Shown piece by piece: positions 67 through 59,103 of a DNA stretch of 59,103 nt (the first letter of the stretch is position 1; each line of letters begins with the position of its first letter). Position numbers and translations under genes: made by a program. The DNA comes from Spirulina sp. Lineage in GTDB: Bacteria > Cyanobacteriota > Cyanobacteriia > Phormidesmidales > Phormidesmidaceae. The notes below the pieces were generated by a model. It made no database searches and was not told the DNA's origin. It saw only the letters and a list, made by a program, of their open reading frames with translations. Location: contig JBIPSI010000033.1 in assembly GCA_044070495.1 (NCBI GenBank), forward strand, positions 1 to 59,103, in the 5' to 3' direction.

Positions 67-123
67 TGCCTGGTAAGTGGACTTAGTGTTCCCAACCAGT
101 AACATTTCTACCAGGCAGAACAA
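60..123 (-). other. Body of the ORF-less first integron cassette
   Basis: Only ~57 bp lie between the attI crossover G|TT (124|123) and the attC R'' box. The cassette ends are complementary: 60-75 GTTGGTGTGCCTGGTA vs 109-124 TACCAGGCAGAACAAC. Confidence 0.75.
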
Positions 124-312
124 CTCTTTATTAGAGGGAAATTTTCCGTCTAATACCCTTATACGGGATCTTAGGTGGAAATCTGTCCGCCTAAATACCC
201 CTAGAGGGATCTTAGGTGGAAAAATTTCAGCCTAAATGCCGAATATGGGATCTTAGGTGGAAAGTTTCAGTATAAACACCCGACGCCCTGGGAGCCTGGT
301 AACTTAAGATTT
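122..312 (-). other. attI region of the integrase-linked integron (core site, phased repeats, probable promoters)
   Basis: Minus strand CTCTAAT-AAAGA-GTT has the attI1 layout (L box, 5 bp, GTT). It is divergent from intI. Identity with the copy at 56910-57100 stops exactly after the GTT. Confidence 0.85.
125..287. repeat. Four tandem ~41-bp palindromic units in attI
   Basis: GGGATCTTAGGTGGAAA occurs exactly at 165, 206 and 247. Each unit has a TTAG..GGAAA/TTTC..CTAA dyad, including a degenerate unit at 131-153. Confidence 0.95.
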
Positions 313-322
313 CCTTAGAAAT

Positions 323-336
323 AGTACGGGCTTACC
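323..336 (+). promoter_or_regulatory. Possible cyanobacterial-type LexA box upstream of intI
   Basis: AGTAC-GGGC-TTACC resembles RGTACNNNDGTWCB with mismatches. It sits just before the ATG and downstream of a TAAGAT -10-like hexamer (305-310). Confidence 0.35.
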
Positions 337-337
337 T

Positions 338-1309
338 ATGGATGCATCGACTCCTCCACCCAAACGCCTGCTTGACCAAGTGCGGGATGCCATTCGGCTC
401 AAGCACTACTCTTACCGCACAGAACAGACCTACGTGCAATGGATTCGGCGGTATATCCTGTTTCACAACAAGCGCCACCCAAATCAAATGGGGGTGCCGG
501 AGATAGAGGCGTTTCTGACCCATCTGGCGGTGCAGGAGCATGTCGCGGCCTCTACGCAGAACCAAGCCCTTAGCGCGTTGTTATTTTTGTATCGAGAAGT
601 TCTGTTTCTGCCCTTGGATGCTCGGATTGATGCGGTGCGGGCCAAGCCATCGCGGAAACTGCCAACGGTTTTGACCAAGGATGAGGTGCGCTCGGTGATT
701 GTGCATATGACCGGGGTTCATCGGCTCATTGTTCAAACGCTCTATGGCAGTGGGCTGCGGCTGCGAGAGGCGATGCAGCTACGGGTGAAGGATTTGGATT
801 TTCCTCAGCATCAAATTGTGGTGCGGGATGCCAAGGGCCACGACAGCCGTGTCACCATGCTTCCGGTTAGTTTGGTGGAGCCTTTACAGGAACACCTTCA
901 GGGAGTGCAGCGGCTCCATCGGCAAGATTTGGAACAGGGCTATGGGGCAACGGTTTTACCCTTTGCCTTAGCCCGGAAGTACCCCAATGCAAACCGCCAA
1001 TGGCACTGGCAGTTTGTGTTTCCGGCTTCGACGCGCTGCCAAGATCCGCGCAGTGGGGCGGTGGTTCGTTATCACTTGCATGAGAGCGGATTGCAAAAGG
1101 CCGTGAAGCAAGCGGTGCGCTGTGCAGGAATTCAAAAGCGAGTGGGTTGTCACACCTTCCGCCATAGCTTTGCCACCCATCTGCTGCAAAACGGCTACGA
1201 CATTCGCACGGTGCAGGAATTGCTGGGCCATAAGGACGTGAAAACCACGATGATTTACACCCATGTGCTGAATCGGGGTGGACGAGGAGTTAGAAGTCCG
1301 CTGGATTGA
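338..1309 (+). CDS. intI: Integron integrase (tyrosine recombinase)
   Basis: 323 aa. N-terminal [14 protein letters not shown], catalytic R-K-HxxR-H-Y set (GLRL, AKG, HTFRH, LGH, IYTH) and the IntI-specific insertion [20 protein letters not shown]. Confidence 0.97.
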
Positions 1310-1342: not shown

Positions 1343-4237
1343 CTACTTCTCCACCAGTTCGCGGAACCAGTTGTCGCTCCAGAGGTCGTCGAAGGCGGGT
1401 TCGGTGCGAGCTTCTTCTTTATAGTCAGGGTCGAGACGAACGGCCTGTTGGAGGCATTCCAGGGTCATGTCGGATTCCCGCTGGAGGGCGTAGCAGAGGG
1501 CTTTGTTGTAGTGGGCCTTGGCGTAGTCCGGGTCGAGGGCGATAGCTTTATCGAAACTCTTGATCGCCTCGTCATCGCGCCCTAATTTGACCAGGGCCAA
1601 GCCGCGATTATCCCAGGCTTTAGGTAATTCGGCATTAAAGCGAGTGGCTTTATCGAAGGAGGAAAGGGCATCTTCGTAGCGTTCTAATTCCAGCAGAGAC
1701 AGACCGCGATTGAGCCAAGCAATGGCATCATTGGCCTGGATTTCGACGGCTCTATCAAAGGATTGGAAGGCTTCTTCGTGTCGCTGCAAAATGCCGTAGG
1801 AAACCCCTCGATTCACCCAGGCTTCGTGGTATTCGGGGTTGATTTCTAGGGCTTTATCGAAGGCCGTAATCGCATCTTCCCGCCGCTTTAGACGACTCAA
1901 CACCATGCCTCGATTCAGCCATACTTTGGGGTCTTCGGGGGTGATGTCGGCTAGTTTTTCAAACACCTCTAAGGCATCTTCGGGGCGGCGCAGTTCCCGC
2001 AATAACAAGCCTTTTTGATAGAGAGCTAGGTGATGGCGGGGGCTGATGGTGAGCAGGCGATCTAGGGAGGTAACGGCGGCTTCGAGCTGTTCCAAGGCTT
2101 GCTGGGCCTTGGCGCGATTTAGCCAGGTATTGACGTTGTTGGGCTGAATTTCTAGGGCTTTGTCGTACTCACCGAGGGCGAGGTCGTAGTCTTCGGCCTC
2201 TAGGTATCTATCGCCTGCCTGGATGTATTCTTCGGCGGTGAGGAACAGTTCGGGGCGGTTGAGTTCTAGGCGGGTGAGCTTGTCGGTGACGGTCTCAAAT
2301 TGCTGGCGGGTTTCGCTCATGAACACATCCGAGATGTACTCTGGCGTGACTTCCGCGAGGCGATCCAAAATGTCGGACTTTTGGCGCATCGCCTCGGCCT
2401 GGATGGCCTCTAGGCGCACCTTGTAGCTTTGCTGGAGCAGGGCCAAATCCCCCAGAGCCACCTCACGACCTGCTTCCACATCGGCTTGCAGTTGGGTGAG
2501 GCGGTCGCCCATTTCCGCCATTAGCGCTTCGAGCCGTAGTCGCACCTGATCCTGGCGTTCGGCGGTGGCGGATTCCAGGTTGGCGAGGTCTTCGCTGAGG
2601 CGGCGGTCGAAGGTGTCGATTTTATCCAGCACCCGGTCGCGCTTGGTGAAGATCATCTCCCGTGCCTGGGTGAGCTGGTCGGTAAAGGCGGCTTCCATGA
2701 CCCGCAGGCCGTCGAGGGACTGCATTTGCTGTTCGCCCACCTGCTCTTGCAGGACGCGCACCTGTTGACTGAAGGCCGTCGCCGTCGCCTCCAAATCGCT
2801 AAGAATCGTGCTTTTCTGAATTTCCGACTCCGTGGCCATTTGGGCAAGCTGGGCCTGGAGGCGTTGGGCCATGTCCTGAAATTCGTCGAGGGTGCCCCGC
2901 TGGCGGCTGTCTACCTCGGTGCGGGTGGTGGCAAAGCGGTCGAGGGCATCGTCGGCGGCGCGGCGCAGGTCAAACAGGAGGGCTTCCTGACGCTGTTCGA
3001 TGTCGCTACGCAGACCGGAAAACTGGCCCAAAAATTCGTCCGCCGAGCGGCGCAGGTCTTGCAGAATGCGGCTGCGCTGGGCTTCCACCTCGGTACGCAG
3101 GTTGGCGAAGCGCTGGGTAAATTCGTCGATGGAGTTTTGGATATTTTGAATGGCCAAATCCCGATGGCCAAAGGCGCTGACCTGCAATTCCCCCAGTTGG
3201 CGGCTGATCTCCTGTTCCTGGGTTTGCAAGCGTCCCAGACTTTCTTGTTTGAGGGCATCCAGGGATTCGGCAATCTCGGCGGTCTGTTGGCCTACCTGCT
3301 CACTGGCCTGGTTGGTCAACTGCTGCCGTAGGTCGGCTAGGGCGGTCATCACCCGATCCCGCTCTTCTTGGACGGTGGTGGTCATGGCGGTCATCCGATC
3401 CGCCAAACTGGCTTCGCTATTGGCCAGCTTTTGCAGCACCGCATCCTGCTGTACCTCCACATCGCCGCGCAGACGATTCACGTCCCGCAAAAATCCGGTT
3501 TGGTTTTCCTCCATCACCCGAAACACCGCATCCCGCTGCATTTGGGTGTCCTTACGCAGGTTGGTGACTTGGTCTTCGGCGGACTGGCGCAGGCTCACCA
3601 AGCGACCGACAAAATCTGCCTCGGTGGATTCCAGTTTCACCTGAAGTTCCGCCAGGGTCGATTGCCAATCGTTGAGGGTACGGGCTTTGAACTCGGCCAG
3701 ATCGTCCACAATCCGGTTTAGCACCTGCTTTTTGGTCAGGGCTTCTTCCTGGAAACGATCCGTGCGGCTGGTGATGGCGGCGGCCTGTTCCTCGGCCTGG
3801 TTGAGGATGTAGTCTAAATCGCGGGTGGCGGACTGGATGCGGGTTTCTAGGTCGGTAATTTCGTTAATTTGCTTGCGGACGATGCCAGACACTTCCTGAA
3901 TTACCGAACGCCGCATCAGCCAGAGCATGGCCACGCCCAGCCCCAGTAGCAGCACCAGCGTTCCCAGCAGCACCATAAATAGGGTGGTCGCCCGTCGAAA
4001 AGCCAGATCCGCTTCCCGCTGGAGCTGCTGAATTTCCGCCGTGCTAGCCTGGGCAATCAGAATGTCATCGTCCGTCGTACTCGCTTGGGCCAGCAGAACC
4101 TTATCCCCAACCAAGTCATTCCCTAGGGAAACGGCCTCAGCCCTTGATATGCCAACAACACCGCCGCTCAGCAACGCCAGCGACAGCAACAGCAAGGGAC
4201 GGGGCAGGGTGGCAAAGGGGCGAGAAATCGGCCTCAT
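1343..4237 (-). CDS. Membrane-anchored coiled-coil protein with C-terminal TPR repeats
   Basis: Signal-like and TM segments, ~550 aa heptad-rich helix, and ~8 TPR motifs (AWVNRG..., AWDNRG...). ATG 4237 preferred over 4321. Confidence 0.85.
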   Translation of the reverse strand: MRPISRPFATLPRPLLLLSLALLSGGVVGISRAEAVSLGNDLVGDKVLLAQASTTDDDILIAQASTAEIQQLQREADLAFRRATTLFMVLLGTLVLLLGLGVAMLWLMRRSVIQEVSGIVRKQINEITDLETRIQSATRDLDYILNQAEEQAAAITSRTDRFQEEALTKKQVLNRIVDDLAEFKARTLNDWQSTLAELQVKLESTEADFVGRLVSLRQSAEDQVTNLRKDTQMQRDAVFRVMEENQTGFLRDVNRLRGDVEVQQDAVLQKLANSEASLADRMTAMTTTVQEERDRVMTALADLRQQLTNQASEQVGQQTAEIAESLDALKQESLGRLQTQEQEISRQLGELQVSAFGHRDLAIQNIQNSIDEFTQRFANLRTEVEAQRSRILQDLRRSADEFLGQFSGLRSDIEQRQEALLFDLRRAADDALDRFATTRTEVDSRQRGTLDEFQDMAQRLQAQLAQMATESEIQKSTILSDLEATATAFSQQVRVLQEQVGEQQMQSLDGLRVMEAAFTDQLTQAREMIFTKRDRVLDKIDTFDRRLSEDLANLESATAERQDQVRLRLEALMAEMGDRLTQLQADVEAGREVALGDLALLQQSYKVRLEAIQAEAMRQKSDILDRLAEVTPEYISDVFMSETRQQFETVTDKLTRLELNRPELFLTAEEYIQAGDRYLEAEDYDLALGEYDKALEIQPNNVNTWLNRAKAQQALEQLEAAVTSLDRLLTISPRHHLALYQKGLLLRELRRPEDALEVFEKLADITPEDPKVWLNRGMVLSRLKRREDAITAFDKALEINPEYHEAWVNRGVSYGILQRHEEAFQSFDRAVEIQANDAIAWLNRGLSLLELERYEDALSSFDKATRFNAELPKAWDNRGLALVKLGRDDEAIKSFDKAIALDPDYAKAHYNKALCYALQRESDMTLECLQQAVRLDPDYKEEARTEPAFDDLWSDNWFRELVEK

Positions 4238-36754: not shown

Positions 36755-36779
36755 AAAAAAGGGGAACCAAAGTTCCCCT
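36755..36779 (-). terminator. Intrinsic terminator downstream of the Hsp20 gene
   Basis: Minus strand AGGGGAAC-TTTG-GTTCCCCT followed by a T run. Confidence 0.75.
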
Positions 36780-36901
36780 ATCATGACGTAGATTTAACCT
36801 TGGCTTAGCGCTGGTTGACTAAAGACATTTGATTTATCCCTTAGCCCCTAAACGCCAAACCACTTACGGATCTGTGACGACAACTCAGGCGAATCCTGCC
36901 C

Positions 36902-37384
36902 CTAGGCTTCCGTGGGTTCACCTTCGGGTTGGCTAGCTTCCAGGGTGGGTTTGCCCAGGTTGATCTTCACCACCTTGGTTTGGGCTTCTACCACCTTCGG
37001 CAGGGTGAGGGTAAGAATGCCGTGGTTAAATTCGGCGCTCACTTGGCCATTTTGGATGGGTTCTGGCAGGTTGATCACCCGTTGGAAGTGGCCGTAACGG
37101 ACATCATCATAGAGCAGCTTAGTGCCTTCCGGCAGTTCCGGTTCAGGCCGTTCGCCCGACAGGGAAATGGTGTCGGCGGTTACCTGCACATCCAACGCTT
37201 CTGGCTCAATGCCAGGCAGATGAGTTGTGAGCAAGAAGTGATCGCCTTTATCCAGCAAACGCACCGCCGGAACCCAGTCGGCACGGGGCAAAACTTCAGC
37301 GGCAAAGTCGCCAAAAGCGTCATTAATTTGACGGCGAATCGCGTTAATTTCAGAGATGGGATCGAGATAACGGCGGACGATCAT
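36902..37384 (-). CDS. Small heat-shock protein (Hsp20)
   Basis: WVPAV...LPGI...YGHFQRVINLP...NHGILTLTLPK alpha-crystallin domain. Confidence 0.93.
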   Translation of the reverse strand: MIVRRYLDPISEINAIRRQINDAFGDFAAEVLPRADWVPAVRLLDKGDHFLLTTHLPGIEPEALDVQVTADTISLSGERPEPELPEGTKLLYDDVRYGHFQRVINLPEPIQNGQVSAEFNHGILTLTLPKVVEAQTKVVKINLGKPTLEASQPEGEPTEA

Positions 37385-48945: not shown

Positions 48946-48966
48946 GCTCTTGTTGGCTAAGTTCTA

Positions 48967-49068
48967 GCCCTCACCCCCAGCCCCTCTCCCAGGAAGGAGA
49001 GGGGGGCCGAAAGCATCCTTCAAAGTCCCTCTCCTTCCTGGGAGAGGGATTTAGGGTGAGGGCCACAG
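48967..49068. repeat. Dispersed palindromic repeat (CCCTCTCCC...GGGAGAGGG family)
   Basis: Long dyad; inverted homologue of 10851-10936. Confidence 0.85.
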
Positions 49069-52786: not shown

Positions 52787-53204
52787 GCCAACGTTTCCTT
52801 GTAATCAATACATGAACTATCAATACATAGAATTGTAAACCGCTATCGCTGGTTGACTGACAAAACCGCTATCACTGGTGGCAAAAAGCCGCACCCCCAC
52901 GTTTTGCTCACCGACCTGGCCTACCAATACCGTCCCAGCCTTTGTCGGCTAGGACGCAGATGCACGGATGACGCAGCGGATCGCGCCCCAGGGCAAGACG
53001 GCGGTAACGCAGGCCCAACCGCAATCGCAAGATGCCCCAGGACGATTAGCGGATTGGATGACGCACCGTGGCTAGCCCATAACAGATCAACGCTGCGATC
53101 AGCCTGAGAGGGCGTTTGAAAAGGATTGTCTCAGGGGCAATGGGTCGCTAGATCGGCGTAAATCCTAAGGGATTTTTAACGACTGAGGAAGCAATCTACA
53201 CCCT

Positions 53205-53237
53205 AAGGCCCTCTCCCAACGTGGGAGAGGGCCTTTT
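53205..53237. terminator. Hairpin right after the nuclease stop codon
   Basis: AAGGCCCTCTCCCA-ACG-TGGGAGAGGGCCTT; related to the CCCTCTCCC repeat family. Confidence 0.65.
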
Positions 53238-53241
53238 GAGC

Positions 53242-56200
53242 CTAGAATTGGAAGTTGCTTGGTTGGGCGAGGGCGGCGGCGTCTACATCGAGGAAGGTGG
53301 CGAAGGGCTTGGCGGGTTTGGGGCCACTCAGTCCATCGGGGTCGATGAAGAGGGCGGCGCGTCCGCTGGCACCTTGGGGCCGAATTTGCACCAGCCCATC
53401 GCCGAGGGGATTTTGGCCGTTGTAGCCGAGGCTATCCAGCAGGTCGGTGAGCACCAGTTGGTCTTGGCCGATCTCGAAGTCGGTGATGAAATTCCCGGAC
53501 TGGCTGAGGTCGGTGTAGACGATGCGGTCTCGTCCGCCGCCCGTGGTGATGCGGTCGGGGCCACTGGTGCCGAGGATCAGGTCATTGCCGTCGGTGCCCA
53601 CTAGCACATCGCGCCGTGCCGTGCCCTGAATCAGGTTGGGGGCGGCGATGGTGAAGCGGGAGAGGATGGGGTCGTGGTCGCTGGCTTGTTGGGGGGTCAC
53701 CGCAAACTCGGTGTTGACATGGACGATGTCGTACTCGGCGGTGGCAGCAAGCCCCTGGCTGACCAAGATATGGTCGATGGCCTGGGAGTTGCCCTGGAAG
53801 ATAAAGGTATAGCGTTCGTCTTCGGGAAGGGTTTCCGTGAGGTTGATCAGCCCCGTGTTGCGGGCCAAATCGGCGACGGGGGAGACAAACTCAAACTCGT
53901 TGAGGTCGCCCAAAACCATGACGTTGGCGGCGGGGTCGCTCCCCAGGAGAGCGTTGACGTAGCCCTGCACCGCCTCGGACTGGGCCTGTCGCTCATCCAC
54001 CGAACCGTTGACCGTGGGATCTTCCTGGCGAGCTTCAAAGGGTTGCTGCACGCCCAAAATCGGCGCACTGCCGCCCTTGGAGGAGAAGTGGTTATTCACC
54101 AGGGTGATGGTTTCGTGGTTGAACTCGAAGCTGGCCACCAGGGGCAGCCGCGCCCCGGCAAAGGTCTCCCCGCTGCCCTGGCCACCGATGGTTTGCACAG
54201 AATTTTCCACCAGGCTGACCCGGTCGGGGTTGTACAGGTAGGCGGTGCGGATGTTGCCACCGGGCTGGCCACCGCTGGCCCCATCGGTGATGAAGGGGTT
54301 GTCAATGAAGGCGTAGGTGGGGCCTCCGGCGGCTTGGATGGCGGCGATCAGGGTTTGCAGGGTGAGATCCGCAGCAGTGACCCCGTCGTTATTGCTACCG
54401 CTGTTGTCCTGCACCTCTTGCAGGGCGATGATGTCTGGGCCGTTGAGGTTGGCGACAATCTGCTGGGCAATGGCGGCGAAGCGTCCGTCGGCTAGGTCGC
54501 GATCTCCGTCGTTATCGTTGGGGTCGAGGTTGAGGACGTTGTAGCTGGCCACCGTGAGGGTATCGCCATTGCTAACCAGGGTGCTCACCTCCGGTTGCAG
54601 GTTGGCGGATTGCAGGTTGTCGGCGAAGGGTTCCGTCACCACAATTTCGTAGTTGCCAAACCCATAGCCGACCACCCCCGTCACATCGCCCAGACGGTCG
54701 CCCACGTTGACCAGAGGGAAGACCACATCCGCCACGCCGCTGTCAAACTGAAGCTGCACCCGCTCAGGATTGAAATCGTCGGGGGAAATATTGAGGGTGC
54801 CTCGGTTGCTTAGCCCTGTGGCCTCGGCCCCGTTGTTGACCACGCCAAAGATTTCGTCAAATTGGTTAGTGCCGTTCACCACCCGGAAATCTTGAGCCGT
54901 CACCCGCATCCCTTCAATGGACTCGAAAAAGTCGATGCCATCGGTGAGGGGATCGAAGCTGGCAAAGGCGTCGTCGTCAATGATTTGGCTGGGGGGAATG
55001 CGCCCACCATTGCCGATCACAGTAGCCGCTGGCAGGGTGTTCCCCGACGAGATCGGGGTGACCTGAGGCGAGACAATCTGCGTTGTGGATAGATTGCCTG
55101 TGGATACCCCGCCAGGAGTAAACTCCGACACCGTGCCCTCCACCCGCAGGGCTTGGCCCACCAGAACCCCAGGGGCGCGGCTAGTGAACACAAACAGGGC
55201 ATCGGAGGTGGCGAGATCGCCGTCGCCATTGGCATCTTGCAGGTAAAAGCCGTTGCTATCCACAGCGGTCACAATGCCCGTGGTCGCCACGGTTTGCCCC
55301 ACCAGCGGGGAAATATGCCCGGCCCCCTGAATCGTGTAGATCGGGGTGATCTCCAGGGGCGGCGGCGGCACATCCACCAGGGCATTGGGGGCACCGGGGG
55401 TATTCAGGGCTTCACCTGCCTCTGGGGTATCGTTGATCTCTGACAGTCCGGCGAGGTCAAAGTCGTTGCGTACCCAGTCGGCGGCGGTGTCGGTGTCCTG
55501 GCCATCGGGCAAGCGGGAGGCCCCTCCCGGCACAAAGTTGATGCCATCGAAACCACGGGACAACACCGTGGAGGCATAGACCTGATCGCCACTGCCGCCA
55601 TCGTTAACCGCCACGCTATCCACCAGCACCGTCCAGGGGGTGAGGTCTAGCACGCCGTCGTTATTGGTGTCCAAATCTTGGTTCGCCGTGCCCGTAAAGC
55701 CCTCCACTAGCAGCAGGGTTTGGCTGCCGTTTTGGTAGAAATCTTCGAGAAATCCCGTCGTCCAAAAGCCACTGGCGTCGGTGGTTCCCAGGCTTTGTAC
55801 CGTGGTGACGCGTCCTCGCTCGCTGTTGCTGTCGCCCTCAATTTGCAGCAGGGTATAGGTGCTGTAGTTGGTGTTGGCGCTGCCCAGAATCTCAACGTAT
55901 TCGCGGGTGTCGGCACCGACATGGCTAAACACAAACTCGTTAATGATCGGCTGGCTGGGGCCACTGGTGCCGCCAAAACTTTGGCTGGTGTTGATGCTGC
56001 CGCTGGTGTTGGCGGTGGTGCTTACCCAGGTGAAGTCTTCGTAGGTGGTGCCGCTGCCCGTCAGTTGCAGGGAAGATCCCACGGATTCAGACCCCGTTTG
56101 GCTCACCCCAATGTTCACGCTGGTCATCCCTGCTGCTGGGCCACTCAGGGCCATAAACTGGCCTTCGTAGCTGAGGAACTGCACCACCTGACCCGCATTA

Positions 56201-56466
56201 TTCACCAGGGCAAAGCCATCGGGCGCACCATTTTGAAGCCCCGCAGCGGCAAAGGACAGCGTACCAAAGCCGTTCCCCTGATCCGCAATAACACCGCTCA
56301 GCGCCACCGTGGCATAGGGCGCACGCACTGAGTCTGCACCGTTGTACAGCACCAGACTCCAGCCTGTGAGATCAAAGCCCGCTGGCCCCGCAATTTCGAT
56401 AGATTCGCCCACGTCGGCACCGGCGTTATCGTAGTGAAATTCGTTGATAAAAACAGAGGTCGCCAT
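53242..56466 (-). CDS. Extracellular nuclease (ExeM/NucH-like: lamin-tail-like domains, OB fold, EEP domain, RTX-type tail)
   Basis: FINEFHYDN, IYTIQG, ASYNVLNL, ALQEVQD, LGDLN and ASDHDP, plus a C-terminal GGGRD/ITDF secretion-type tail. Confidence 0.88.
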   Translation of the reverse strand: MATSVFINEFHYDNAGADVGESIEIAGPAGFDLTGWSLVLYNGADSVRAPYATVALSGVIADQGNGFGTLSFAAAGLQNGAPDGFALVNNAGQVVQFLSYEGQFMALSGPAAGMTSVNIGVSQTGSESVGSSLQLTGSGTTYEDFTWVSTTANTSGSINTSQSFGGTSGPSQPIINEFVFSHVGADTREYVEILGSANTNYSTYTLLQIEGDSNSERGRVTTVQSLGTTDASGFWTTGFLEDFYQNGSQTLLLVEGFTGTANQDLDTNNDGVLDLTPWTVLVDSVAVNDGGSGDQVYASTVLSRGFDGINFVPGGASRLPDGQDTDTAADWVRNDFDLAGLSEINDTPEAGEALNTPGAPNALVDVPPPPLEITPIYTIQGAGHISPLVGQTVATTGIVTAVDSNGFYLQDANGDGDLATSDALFVFTSRAPGVLVGQALRVEGTVSEFTPGGVSTGNLSTTQIVSPQVTPISSGNTLPAATVIGNGGRIPPSQIIDDDAFASFDPLTDGIDFFESIEGMRVTAQDFRVVNGTNQFDEIFGVVNNGAEATGLSNRGTLNISPDDFNPERVQLQFDSGVADVVFPLVNVGDRLGDVTGVVGYGFGNYEIVVTEPFADNLQSANLQPEVSTLVSNGDTLTVASYNVLNLDPNDNDGDRDLADGRFAAIAQQIVANLNGPDIIALQEVQDNSGSNNDGVTAADLTLQTLIAAIQAAGGPTYAFIDNPFITDGASGGQPGGNIRTAYLYNPDRVSLVENSVQTIGGQGSGETFAGARLPLVASFEFNHETITLVNNHFSSKGGSAPILGVQQPFEARQEDPTVNGSVDERQAQSEAVQGYVNALLGSDPAANVMVLGDLNEFEFVSPVADLARNTGLINLTETLPEDERYTFIFQGNSQAIDHILVSQGLAATAEYDIVHVNTEFAVTPQQASDHDPILSRFTIAAPNLIQGTARRDVLVGTDGNDLILGTSGPDRITTGGGRDRIVYTDLSQSGNFITDFEIGQDQLVLTDLLDSLGYNGQNPLGDGLVQIRPQGASGRAALFIDPDGLSGPKPAKPFATFLDVDAAALAQPSNFQF

Positions 56467-56909
56467 CGGTCATCTTTCCTTCAAAACATCATGCATCGGC
56501 GGCATTTATCCGCGCCAAAACCGCCCCCCAGGACATCCCAGAGGGACTAGGCCCAATCGCCCAAACCTTCGGCCCAACCCAAACTAGGCCGCTAGACACC
56601 ACAACTTTTCCAGCACCGATAATTTCAGTGCCGCCAACCTATCGGTAGTTTTCAGGGTTGCAGATCCCAGAATTGGAACTGTCCGGGTCTTGCCCTAAGG
56701 GCATCACCACCGCAGGCCAAAATGTCAGTATTTCCACACAGAAGCTTAACAAACGCTTGGTAAAGCCCCCGTTAACAGGGCTTTAAGCCTGAACAGCTTC
56801 ACACAAACTTCATAGACTGCCTCGTGGAGCACTCTGCGAGTGACCAGGGGGATCGAGTTGCGGGAACGGAACTTGCAGCGGTTTTGGGTATTGCCTCAAT
56901 AAGCGCAGA

Positions 56910-57100
56910 AAATCTTAAGGTATCAGACACCCAGAGCGTCGGGTGTTTATACTGAAACTTTCTACCTAAGATCCCATATTCGGCGTTTAGGCTGAAATTT
57001 GTCCACCTAAGATCCCCGCAGGGGTATTTAGACCGACAGATTTCCACCTAAGATCCCGTATAGGGGTATTAGGCGGAAAATTTCCCTCTAATAAAGAGTT
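56910..57100 (+). other. Second attI region with no adjacent integrase; inverted copy of 122-312
   Basis: 191 bp, ungapped, about 15 mismatches by hand alignment. CCTAAGATCCC at 56965, 57006 and 57047. Ends in CTCTAAT-AAAGA-GTT|AGAT. Confidence 0.88.
56924..56953 (+). promoter_or_regulatory. Candidate cassette promoter (Pc-like)
   Basis: TATACT at 56948-56953 is conserved in both attI copies; weak CAGACA -35 hexamer 18 bp upstream. Confidence 0.4.
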
Positions 57101-59100
57101 AGATTGCTTAAGTTGCTGGTCAGGGCAGTTGTTGAAAGGTTATCTGTCGGTGCCGAAGATCAAGCCAAACTGATAAAAATTTGGCAGAGTAGAGAATGAA
57201 CAAATGAACTCTTGCTATGTCACCACTGAACCCGCCTCTTACCAAAGATGACTTTAATAATGCTTGTTGGCAGGATGTAGTCAACGGCAGTAAACGGAAA
57301 GATTGTCTCTCTTATGACAGTGCCTTCTGGAAGAAATCGCAAGAAGCACAAGAAGCAGGGAACCTTAGAGATCAAGCTGTGTTTGTAGTTCTGGCAGCAG
57401 TGACCAGTGCCGCAATTAAGCCAGAATCAACTGAAGAGTTTTTTGCTGATATTTTTAAGAATCTTACGGATGATCAGCTAGATTTCCTTGCTGATATTGC
57501 ACCCGAAATATCAGATCCTGAACTTCAAGCACGAGTAGCAGATATTCTTTGGATTAGGCGGCGTGATTATCGGATGGCTCAGCTAGCCATTCCTGCTTAT
57601 CTACAATCAGCAACCACTTTAGAAAACCCTGAACATTGGACTCACTGTGTTGACAGAATGGAACGGGCGCTACGATTAGCACGAAAAATCAGACACGAGG
57701 ATGAGGTTGTTTTTTCACATATAGAAGCAGTTCTTGATCGCTACAACGGGGAAGACCCTCTATGGTTATCTGCAAAGTTAATGGAGCTATTGCAAGAGTA
57801 TCGATTTGGAGATCCAGCCAAGTACGCAGCCCTTTCTGAAAAAGCTGCGATTTTAGCAGAATCAAGCTCTGATTGGCGTAGAGCAAGAACACTCTGGGGT
57901 ATTAAAGCTGTATGGCATCGCATGGAGAAGGACTACAGCAAGGAACTTGATGCTTCAATGTCAGCCGCTGAAACTTATGTTAAAGAAGCCCAGGCAGCCC
58001 TTACTAGAACTCCACCAAGTTACATGGTTGCATCGCACTTTTTACAACATGCTGTTGAGGCATTTAGAAGTATTAGAGGCACAAAAGAAGAAACAGTAGA
58101 TGCTAAAGCGAGAGCTGAGGAAGTTCATAAGCTTCTTCTTCAGTATCAAGAAGAGACTCGCAATGAAATGATTACCAGTTCTCACGAAATGGACATTAGT
58201 GAGTTGGTAGAGGAAGCAAGAAATCATGTCAGAGGCAAAGGCTTTCAGGAAGCTCTATTTGCTTTAGCTCTTTTGGGTGCCCCAACTGATGTCTCTCAAT
58301 TGAAGCAGCAAGTACAGCAGCAGGCTCGTGAGTTTGTAGCATCTCATCTTTTTCCTGTTGTAATGATGAATGAAATGGGCAAAGTTACTGCTCGTCAACC
58401 GGGTTCAGTCCTTTCTAGCAATCCTGAAGAAGCGGAGGCTGCAACTCGCTTTGAGATGTGTCGAAATGCTATTTACTATCAGAATCTGCAAGCTCAAGCA
58501 TATGTTGAGCCAGCTAGATATCAAATTAATCTAGAGCATAGTGTACGGCTAAATGATATTCTCTCAATCATTTCGCATAGCCCATTTGTTCCCCCTGAAC
58601 GTGAGTACCTTTTTGCCAAGGGACTATATGCCGGATTAACCGGAGATTTTTTCACATCTACACACATCCTAATTCCTCAAATTGAAAACTCCGTTCGTTA
58701 CATTATGTGGCGAAGAAGGATAATTACTTCGGGACTGGATGACTCTGGCATTCAGAATGAGCATAACTTGAATTCTACTCTCTACCGTCCAGAGATAACC
58801 TCTATCTTCGATGAGAATACGTTATTTGATTTGAAATGCCTACTGGTCGAACATGCTGGTAGTAACCTAAGAAATCGTATGGCTCATGGTCTAATTAATG
58901 ACGGTGAGTTTATGAGTCCATTGATGTCATATATCTGGTGGCTTACGTTGAGACTTTGTTGCTTGCCCATTTTGATACATCAGCAGCGCGCTGAGCAGTC
59001 TAATTCCAGTACCGACGCAATCTAACAACCCGGCTGGAGCGGACTGTTGAGCGATCTTGGTGGTGTTGCAAAAGTTGCGTACAGCCGCTCAGCCGGAACG
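57099..59100 (+). mobile_element. Integron gene cassette integrated at the second attI
   Basis: 5' GTTAGATTGC (57098-57107) is the exact reverse complement of GCAATCTAAC (59017-59026). Single ORF, low GC, terminal attC. Confidence 0.92.
57217..59025 (+). CDS. DUF4209-like protein with C-terminal HEPN-type motif
   Basis: 602 aa, helical; LIPQIENSVR...NLRNRMAHG (RX4H). The TAA stop lies inside the attC R'' box. Confidence 0.8.
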   Translation: MSPLNPPLTKDDFNNACWQDVVNGSKRKDCLSYDSAFWKKSQEAQEAGNLRDQAVFVVLAAVTSAAIKPESTEEFFADIFKNLTDDQLDFLADIAPEISDPELQARVADILWIRRRDYRMAQLAIPAYLQSATTLENPEHWTHCVDRMERALRLARKIRHEDEVVFSHIEAVLDRYNGEDPLWLSAKLMELLQEYRFGDPAKYAALSEKAAILAESSSDWRRARTLWGIKAVWHRMEKDYSKELDASMSAAETYVKEAQAALTRTPPSYMVASHFLQHAVEAFRSIRGTKEETVDAKARAEEVHKLLLQYQEETRNEMITSSHEMDISELVEEARNHVRGKGFQEALFALALLGAPTDVSQLKQQVQQQAREFVASHLFPVVMMNEMGKVTARQPGSVLSSNPEEAEAATRFEMCRNAIYYQNLQAQAYVEPARYQINLEHSVRLNDILSIISHSPFVPPEREYLFAKGLYAGLTGDFFTSTHILIPQIENSVRYIMWRRRIITSGLDDSGIQNEHNLNSTLYRPEITSIFDENTLFDLKCLLVEHAGSNLRNRMAHGLINDGEFMSPLMSYIWWLTLRLCCLPILIHQQRAEQSNSSTDAI

Positions 59101-59103
59101 TTA
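59020..59103 (+). other. Integron attC site
   Basis: ATCTAAC-AACCC-GGCTGGAGCGGACTGT...ACAGCCGCTCAGCC-GGAAC-GTTA: R''/L''/L'/R' with two extrahelical bases and an unpaired spacer. Confidence 0.95.

Follow-up and report, generated by a model that had tools for sequence, protein, structure and literature searches.

Several attI-like platforms and one intact integrase gene in a Spirulina sp. genome, with an integrase-less copy joined to a phage-defence-candidate cassette

Two module copies and a complete cassette in the window

Contig JBIPSI010000033.1 of Spirulina sp. (assembly GCA_044070495.1, genome G000 below) was taken whole as the window of this analysis (contig C33, 59,103 nt). It carries an integron integrase gene, intI, near its left end and two copies of one attI-like module in opposite orientation (Table 1). 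Copy 1 lies directly upstream of intI; copy 2, near the right end, is separated by a unique spacer from a nuclease/RTX-type gene and is joined to a cassette. The assembly measures 5.3 Mb in 74 contigs, the shortest of at least 3.1 kb, and is 97% complete with a GC content of 56.7%.

Table 1. Positions of the features in the window and of the module copies elsewhere in the G000 assembly
Feature	Contig	Position	Strand	Description
Cassette S	C33	1..121	-	most of a ~137-bp cassette without an open reading frame, first at attI copy 1; ~16 nt more on C25
attI copy 1	C33	122..315	-	intI intact; GTT crossover 122-124 on the minus strand; repeat search, tblastn and alignment
intI	C33	338..1306 (to 1309 in the feature list)	+	323 amino acids; only intact integron integrase gene of the assembly
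Unique spacer	C33	56467..56906		440 bp, flanked by attI copy 2 and the nuclease/RTX-type gene (53242-56466, minus strand)
attI copy 2, integrase-less	C33	56907..57100	+	no intI; repeats ~56959-56975, 56998-57016, 57040-57057; core 57081-57100; GTT 57098-57100; tblastn and alignment
Promoter-like site CAGACA-18-TATACT	C33	56924..56953	+	faces the cassette; 9/12 consensus positions; 0.9 such sites expected by chance in the region
Cassette 1	C33	57099..59100	+	2002 bp, G|TT to G|TT; R'/R'' 10/10; GC 33-45%
Cassette open reading frame	C33	57217..59025	+	602 amino acids; Pfam DUF7380 and DUF4209; PADLOC PDC-S39
attC of cassette 1	C33	59017..59103	+	87 nt; R'' overlaps the stop codon; R' (GTTA) is the last 4 bases, cut by the contig end
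Module copy	C60	122-315		intI amino acids 1-91 fused to 303-323 (92-302 deleted); tblastn and alignment
Module copy	C53	19054-19247		intI stub to about amino acid 34 (reference position ~429); tblastn and alignment
Module copy	C43	~4026-4202		intI stub to reference position ~374; tblastn and alignment
Module copy	C17	122192-122351		intI stub of about six codons (reference position ~355); tblastn and alignment
Module copy	C4	183571-183767		no intI; tblastn and alignment

The two arms are 194 nt long, align without a gap and are 92% complementary, and a direct count gives 178 identical positions out of 194, confirming the preliminary description of an inverted, gap-free copy of the region upstream of intI at about 92% identity. 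Five pairs of long inverted repeats (at least 40 nt) were found in the window, all inside these arms, four of them being internal echoes of the main pair. Towards the cassette, identity of the copies runs up to ...AAAGAGTT (57100 in copy 2, 122 in copy 1), the GTT crossover named before; on the other side it stops at 315, which is 22 nt upstream of the intI ATG (338) and not 25 as had been stated. The module is built of three direct repeats (TTTCCACCTAAGATCCC) at 41-nt spacing together with a fourth, degenerate one (TTTCCCTCTAATAAAGAGTT) that bears the crossover, and imperfect inverted partners between the repeats give a chain of alternating half-sites. The 41-nt-spaced repeats, which may be bound by IntI, and the palindromic core are conserved across an alignment of 20 module copies from 13 genomes, seven copies from G000 and 13 from relatives. 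One repeat unit is missing from the copies on C43 (~4089-4202) and on contig C101 of genome G013, visible as a gap of 42 columns, which would be consistent with slippage between direct repeats.

The module copies were counted in the genome and its relatives and each was checked for the GTT end; all 20 lose homology at one and the same point, at GAGTT or TAGTT in 18 copies and at the two variants AATT and AGTG in the remaining ones. Seventeen different sequences follow the module end, nearly all fitting GTTRRRY, and one of them, the cassette that we call S, is common to four G000 copies. In other public runs, module-like contigs (short and of low depth) break at 57100-57102 and continue into at least four different sequences, one being the start of S. 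Judged by its sequence, the module behaves as an attI site. The fixed right end, the variable left end, the R'-fitting junctions and the protein-type palindromic repeats led us to reject three other readings: a repeat element (a miniature inverted-repeat transposable element or another kind), a structured RNA and an array of the CRISPR type. Rfam gave no match on 56300-57300, and on 1-400 it returned three microRNA models only, far below their gathering scores, which we treated as chance.

The complete cassette at copy 2 is joined precisely at the GTT, as first described: R' reads GTTAGATTGC (57098-57107) and pairs with the R'' GCAATCTAAC (59017-59026) at 0 mismatches over 10 bp. The attC folds into one imperfect hairpin (dG -20 to -22 kcal/mol). 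The encoded protein matches the PADLOC model PDLC05011 (PDC-S39) with an E-value of 2.4e-269, residues 1-596 aligning with positions 1-593 of 595, and has no match in NCBIfam; the cargo is a phage-defence candidate by these profile matches. At the C4 copy, too, R' and R'' of the first cassette match perfectly over 10 nt and the attC forms a hairpin. Walking the arrays succeeded only at these two first cassettes, and genome-wide attC heuristics (a two-attC motif, and R''/R' pairing with folding) were noisy and missed known sites, so that no genome-wide attC count is given. An AT-rich island of 0.8-4 kb and 35-50% GC follows every module copy of G000.

At both ends the window stops in cassette sequence shared with other contigs. 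Its last 141 nt (58963-59103) are identical to positions 1-141 of both C39 and C23, which go on with different cassettes after GTTA, past the shared stretch, and the right end is a branch of the assembly graph. This would mean either two occurrences of the cassette 3' end or heterogeneity, downstream of cassette 1, in the population that was sequenced. Because C39 and C23 both start with these 141 nt, the second cassette at copy 2 is ambiguous; one attC lies within the window, and the possible continuation C23 has two attC-like sites (~1020-1100 and 2144-2230). On the left, positions 1-124 are the reverse complement of C25 1-124, and this end is also common to C60.

No trace of intI was found beside copy 2. 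A tblastn search with IntI against the 900-nt region 56300-57200 gave a best E-value of 0.13, in keeping with the earlier statement that no remnant lies between the nuclease gene and the module, and the search over the whole genome returned no match on C33 other than the intI gene itself. The nearest intI is 55.6 kb away: copy 1 adjoins an integrase gene and copy 2 does not, and copy 2 has no integron integrase within 4 kb, the distance used by IntegronFinder to define an attC cluster that has no integron integrase (CALIN). The spacer has no other copy in the genome by BLASTN and holds only short open reading frames, and no exact match longer than 31 nt links the copy-2 region to another part of the genome.

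The preliminary description spoke of a promoter-attI module. The attI part stands, and the promoter amounts to the consensus match listed in Table 1. Its TATACT (56948-56953) is present in most copies of the alignment, and the same consensus scan of copy 1 gave no site of 9/12. The match in copy 2 is a putative promoter that might drive the cassette.

Integrase remnants at the other module copies

The intI product reaches 465.9 bits against TIGR02249 (cut-off 265), its residues 11-323 covering positions 1-313 of 315 of the model, and contains the Pfam domains Phage_integrase and SAM_4. Elsewhere in the assembly tblastn with IntI found fragments only. BLASTN of the module against G000 returned seven copies, with intI intact at one, present as remnants at four and absent at two. 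The number of attI copies is at least seven, and the arrangement first proposed, one IntI with two attI platforms, is too small for this genome.

The remnants form a graded series (Table 1), from a gene with an internal deletion on C60 to a stub of a few codons on C17, and copy 2 and the C4 copy have no stub; the points where these two lose homology are ~8 nt apart at most and lie 15-22 nt ahead of the intI ATG. Three more N-terminal intI fragments were found, one on C23 (35092-35346) and one at each end of C28. The ends of C28 (73.8 kb; 1-440 and 73362-73801) form a near-identical inverted repeat of ~440 nt, with 259/260 identical positions over the first 260 nt, in which an intI stub (amino acids 13-73) reads inward, the attI parts lying off the contig and facing outward. 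C28 and the window share one layout, in which two attI platforms that face outward enclose a large core segment.

Since four of the six other attI copies keep intI remnants of varied length, the simplest origin of such sites would be duplication of the platform followed by loss of intI. Simple integrase loss, which the preliminary description had set against its own proposal, is seen at these four paralogues and not at the copy-2 locus itself. Copy 2 is best read as an integrase-less paralogue at the far end of this decay series and not as a unique, designed satellite.

First cassettes at integrase-less sites

Cassette S is little more than a hairpin resembling an attC, and is the first cassette at four of the seven G000 attI copies. 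It is identical over 121/121 nt at copy 1 of the window, on C60 and on C17 (114/121 on C43), and the adjoining 100 nt of attI at these three sites are only 93, 88 and 87/100 identical. By our own arithmetic, the probability of zero differences in the 121 nt of S at the rate of the neighbouring attI is about 1e-4 to 1e-7. S is nearly private to G000, with weak matches in three of 52 other genomes of the genus. The step in identity falls exactly at the GTT, which argues for recent site-specific insertion of S at several diverged attI, two of them without a working integrase. The 3' boundary of S, as read from the point where C25, C17 and C43 diverge, is ATT and not GTT.

Two sets of orthologous attI sites with intI stubs bear on the same question. 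In the first set, C53 of G000, G005:C219 and G019:C82 share the stub end (~reference position 429) and the flank, which in C53 contains a probable upp gene (uracil phosphoribosyltransferase-like, named from its translation); C53 and G005:C219 are 93.8% identical over 1052 nt, and the three sites have three different first cassettes. In the second set, G012:C42b, G023:C22 and G021:C74 share another stub end and flank and again carry three different first cassettes. Shared stub ends imply that intI was truncated before the species split, and the cassettes in both sets would thus have changed without a local integrase. Taken together, S and the orthologous sites lend indirect support to the use of IntI in trans at integrase-less attI, a conclusion that draws on other copies and takes nothing from copy 2. 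Of the stand-alone satellite served in trans that was proposed at first, there remains an integrase-less attI with a cassette joined at G|TT, and comparative evidence that favours action in trans; its standing as a special second platform is lost.

Module copies in related genomes

The module and IntI were searched for in relatives. Within the genus, 19 of 24 other genomes have the module, and among 16 genomes from other genera of the class five do. Module matches, which are not exact copy numbers, amount to eight in G019, seven each in G005, G013 and G021, four in G012 (three on one contig) and three in the two-contig genome G018. An IntI of near-full length and without stop codons is found in only six of the 24 genus genomes (G003, G004, G005, G010, G011 and G024), and G019, G021, G013, G018 and G023 have modules together with short fragments of IntI only.

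In the module tree, 11 of 17 inner branches are open; copy 1 alone pairs, with G005:C250, and copy 2 sits on a long terminal branch without a sister. The attI-intI platform (window 122-1307) is 95% identical to G005:C250, with 98% identity of the IntI protein, against 76-91% for core blocks; exchange of the platform may postdate the split of the two species. Genomes G005, G019, G012, G013 and G021 match the module and not the flanks of copy 2, and in G005 and G019 there is almost no DNA match to 52850-56906. A ~100-bp element at window ~48965-49066, which recurs dozens of times in G005 and G019 (80-92% identity), is probably a miniature repeat element.

The single-contig genome G031, from another family, has a module that is 90-93% identical to the G000 type and lies 1.76 Mb from its only intI, itself 69% identical to the G000 gene (loci G031:C1:2678500-2684500 and G031:C1:916700-917800). 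G031's own attI is a diverged version of the same design; the two arms of its core palindrome have changed in a matching way, and AGTT and a cassette-like start come next. This arrangement suggests that an attI-headed array lacking an integrase was acquired horizontally.

Origin and present activity of copy 2

We consider it likely that 56907-57100 is a paralogous attI platform that has lost its intI, one of at least seven, and that the single IntI still acts on it in trans; our confidence is higher for the identity of the site than for its present activity. Under this explanation the platform would have been copied by segmental duplication, partly in inverted orientation, and intI would then have been deleted to different end points, completely at copy 2, the attI part staying intact. 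The integrase-less platforms would still gain and lose cassettes through IntI in trans, and copy 2 would hold its 2-kb phage-defence-candidate cassette at a place where a putative promoter in the module could drive expression.

Several points weigh against this explanation. The 16 substitutions that separate copy 2 from copy 1 fall partly within repeat half-sites, and copy 2 could be inactive. No orthologue of the copy-2 locus was found in G005, in G019 or in the three other relatives searched, so that its own history is unreadable, and the evidence for action in trans stems from other copies. The pattern of S could in principle be due to gene conversion, and the cassette differences between orthologues could in principle reflect events that preceded the death of the local intI. 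A second intI could be missing from the 74-contig, 97% complete assembly, and the module copies could come partly from co-binned strains, though copies 1 and 2 share one contig. Finally, at most 28% of the sampled words occur in any public sequencing run, and 56300-56863 is covered by none.

The strongest competitor, which we judge unlikely, is that copy 2 is a dead relic, the attI of a former complete second integron whose cassette was captured under a local intI and which has been a fossil CALIN since. Its 8% divergence from copy 1, with changes inside half-sites, and its isolated position in the module tree would fit, and the scarcity of near-full-length IntI among the genus genomes implies that modules survive without activity. 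Against a general death of such sites stand the identity of S at three diverged attI copies, two without a working intI, and the different first cassettes at orthologous stub sites; as for copy 2 itself, its core and most of its half-sites agree with the consensus of the 20 copies.

It is also conceivable, if distinctly improbable, that the satellite proposed at first holds in its strong form: the module alone, with no intI attached, would be what is copied or moved, copy 2 would never have had an integrase, and selection would keep a distributed multi-attI integron. The nearly coincident, stubless ends of copy 2 and C4 point this way, as does the G031 module far from the only intI of that genome, whose own attI is diverged. 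So does contig C42 of G012, which carries two modules on the same strand 1.1 kb apart (61336-61490, and 62482-62672 with an intI stub beside it; one more lies at 36769-36923). The graded intI remnants at the other paralogues favour deletion instead, and the duplication on C28 carried the stub and flank along with the site; moreover, the left boundary of the module shows no recombination-site motif, and most inner branches of the module tree are open. An assembly artefact, either a chimeric join or fold-back at the repeat or a mixture of strains in the binned genome, is hardly credible: both contig ends stop in repeated cassette sequence, the right one branching to C39 and C23, and reads for checking the join are absent from the public runs (four that were assembled yielded short contigs of module and cassette gene only), but copies 1 and 2 differ at 16/194 positions and carry different cassettes, the longest exact copy-2 match of 31 nt compares with 141-nt overlaps between contigs, and integrase-less modules also occur in the one- or two-contig genomes G031 and G018.

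Comparison with known integron systems

According to Neron et al. 2022 (PMC9024848), a single attI near the integrase is typical of integrons, and attI is poorly described outside class 1. The G000 system resembles a sedentary chromosomal integron of this kind in its TIGR02249 IntI, the attI directly upstream, the G|TT crossover, the R'/R''-complementary cassettes with their attC hairpin, the AT-rich composition and the accessory or defence cargo. It differs in having at least seven scattered attI, each with ~1-3 cassettes, and one integrase.

CALINs are defined by attC alone in Cury et al. 2016 (PMC4889954), where just 15 of 279 CALINs had intI pseudogenes nearby and where one origin discussed is that a genome with several integrons lost the integrase of one. 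Copy 2 is similar in having one or more cassettes with attC and no intI nearby. In that definition attI is not sought outside classes 1-3, whereas the copy-2 array starts with an intact attI that is recognisable by sequence; the CALIN threshold is two attC, and copy 2 has one inside the window.

Decay of intI is itself familiar: Nemergut et al. 2008 (PMC2426708) give about one-third of intI genes as pseudogenes and one-fifth of integron-bearing bacteria as having more than one intI. Truncated or pseudogenised intI and several intI per genome are features that G000 shares with decayed integrons such as those of Xanthomonas (10.1101/2025.06.18.660453, PMC2426708). The difference is that those reports describe lost activity and fixed arrays, while sites of the G000 type keep attI and signs of turnover. 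The Xanthomonas preprint (10.1101/2025.06.18.660453) also describes CALINs as mobilisable in trans. Cassettes far from an integrase are likewise found where insertion occurs at non-classical genomic attG sites (10.1101/2022.09.11.507474, cited as Loot et al. 2024 in the Xanthomonas preprint); attG is a short consensus site with no platform, whereas copy 2 is a full 194-nt attI copy.

The decay of intI and mobilisation in trans are thus already known ideas. In the open-access literature searched we found no description of an orphan, second or additional attI, of multiple or multi-copy attI, or of many integrase-less attI copies per genome that, as seems to be the case here, have been kept across species and are still turning over.

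Meaning for integrons of this lineage

To our knowledge, the attI of chromosomal integrons is almost unknown outside classes 1-3. Integrase-less arrays are catalogued by their attC only, and their origin is debated. The sites described here indicate that such arrays can keep an intact docking site for a long time, some at the same place in three species, and may still change their first cassette. The attI sequence signature could serve annotation in this cyanobacterial lineage, and the phage-defence-candidate cargo agrees with recent studies in which integrons are seen as reservoirs of defence genes.

A wider and much more tentative proposal, which we regard as doubtful at present, is that of a distributed integron in this cyanobacterial genus, in which the 194-nt attI is copied with or without an intI stub and long kept at fixed places, and one IntI serves at least seven first positions in trans. 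If this were true, several cassettes could be expressed and exchanged at once, and many CALINs of other phyla would be attI-headed satellite platforms and not debris. An attI that can be recognised by its sequence makes this a testable system, in which one may ask whether one integrase serves many platforms and whether more first positions are expressed.

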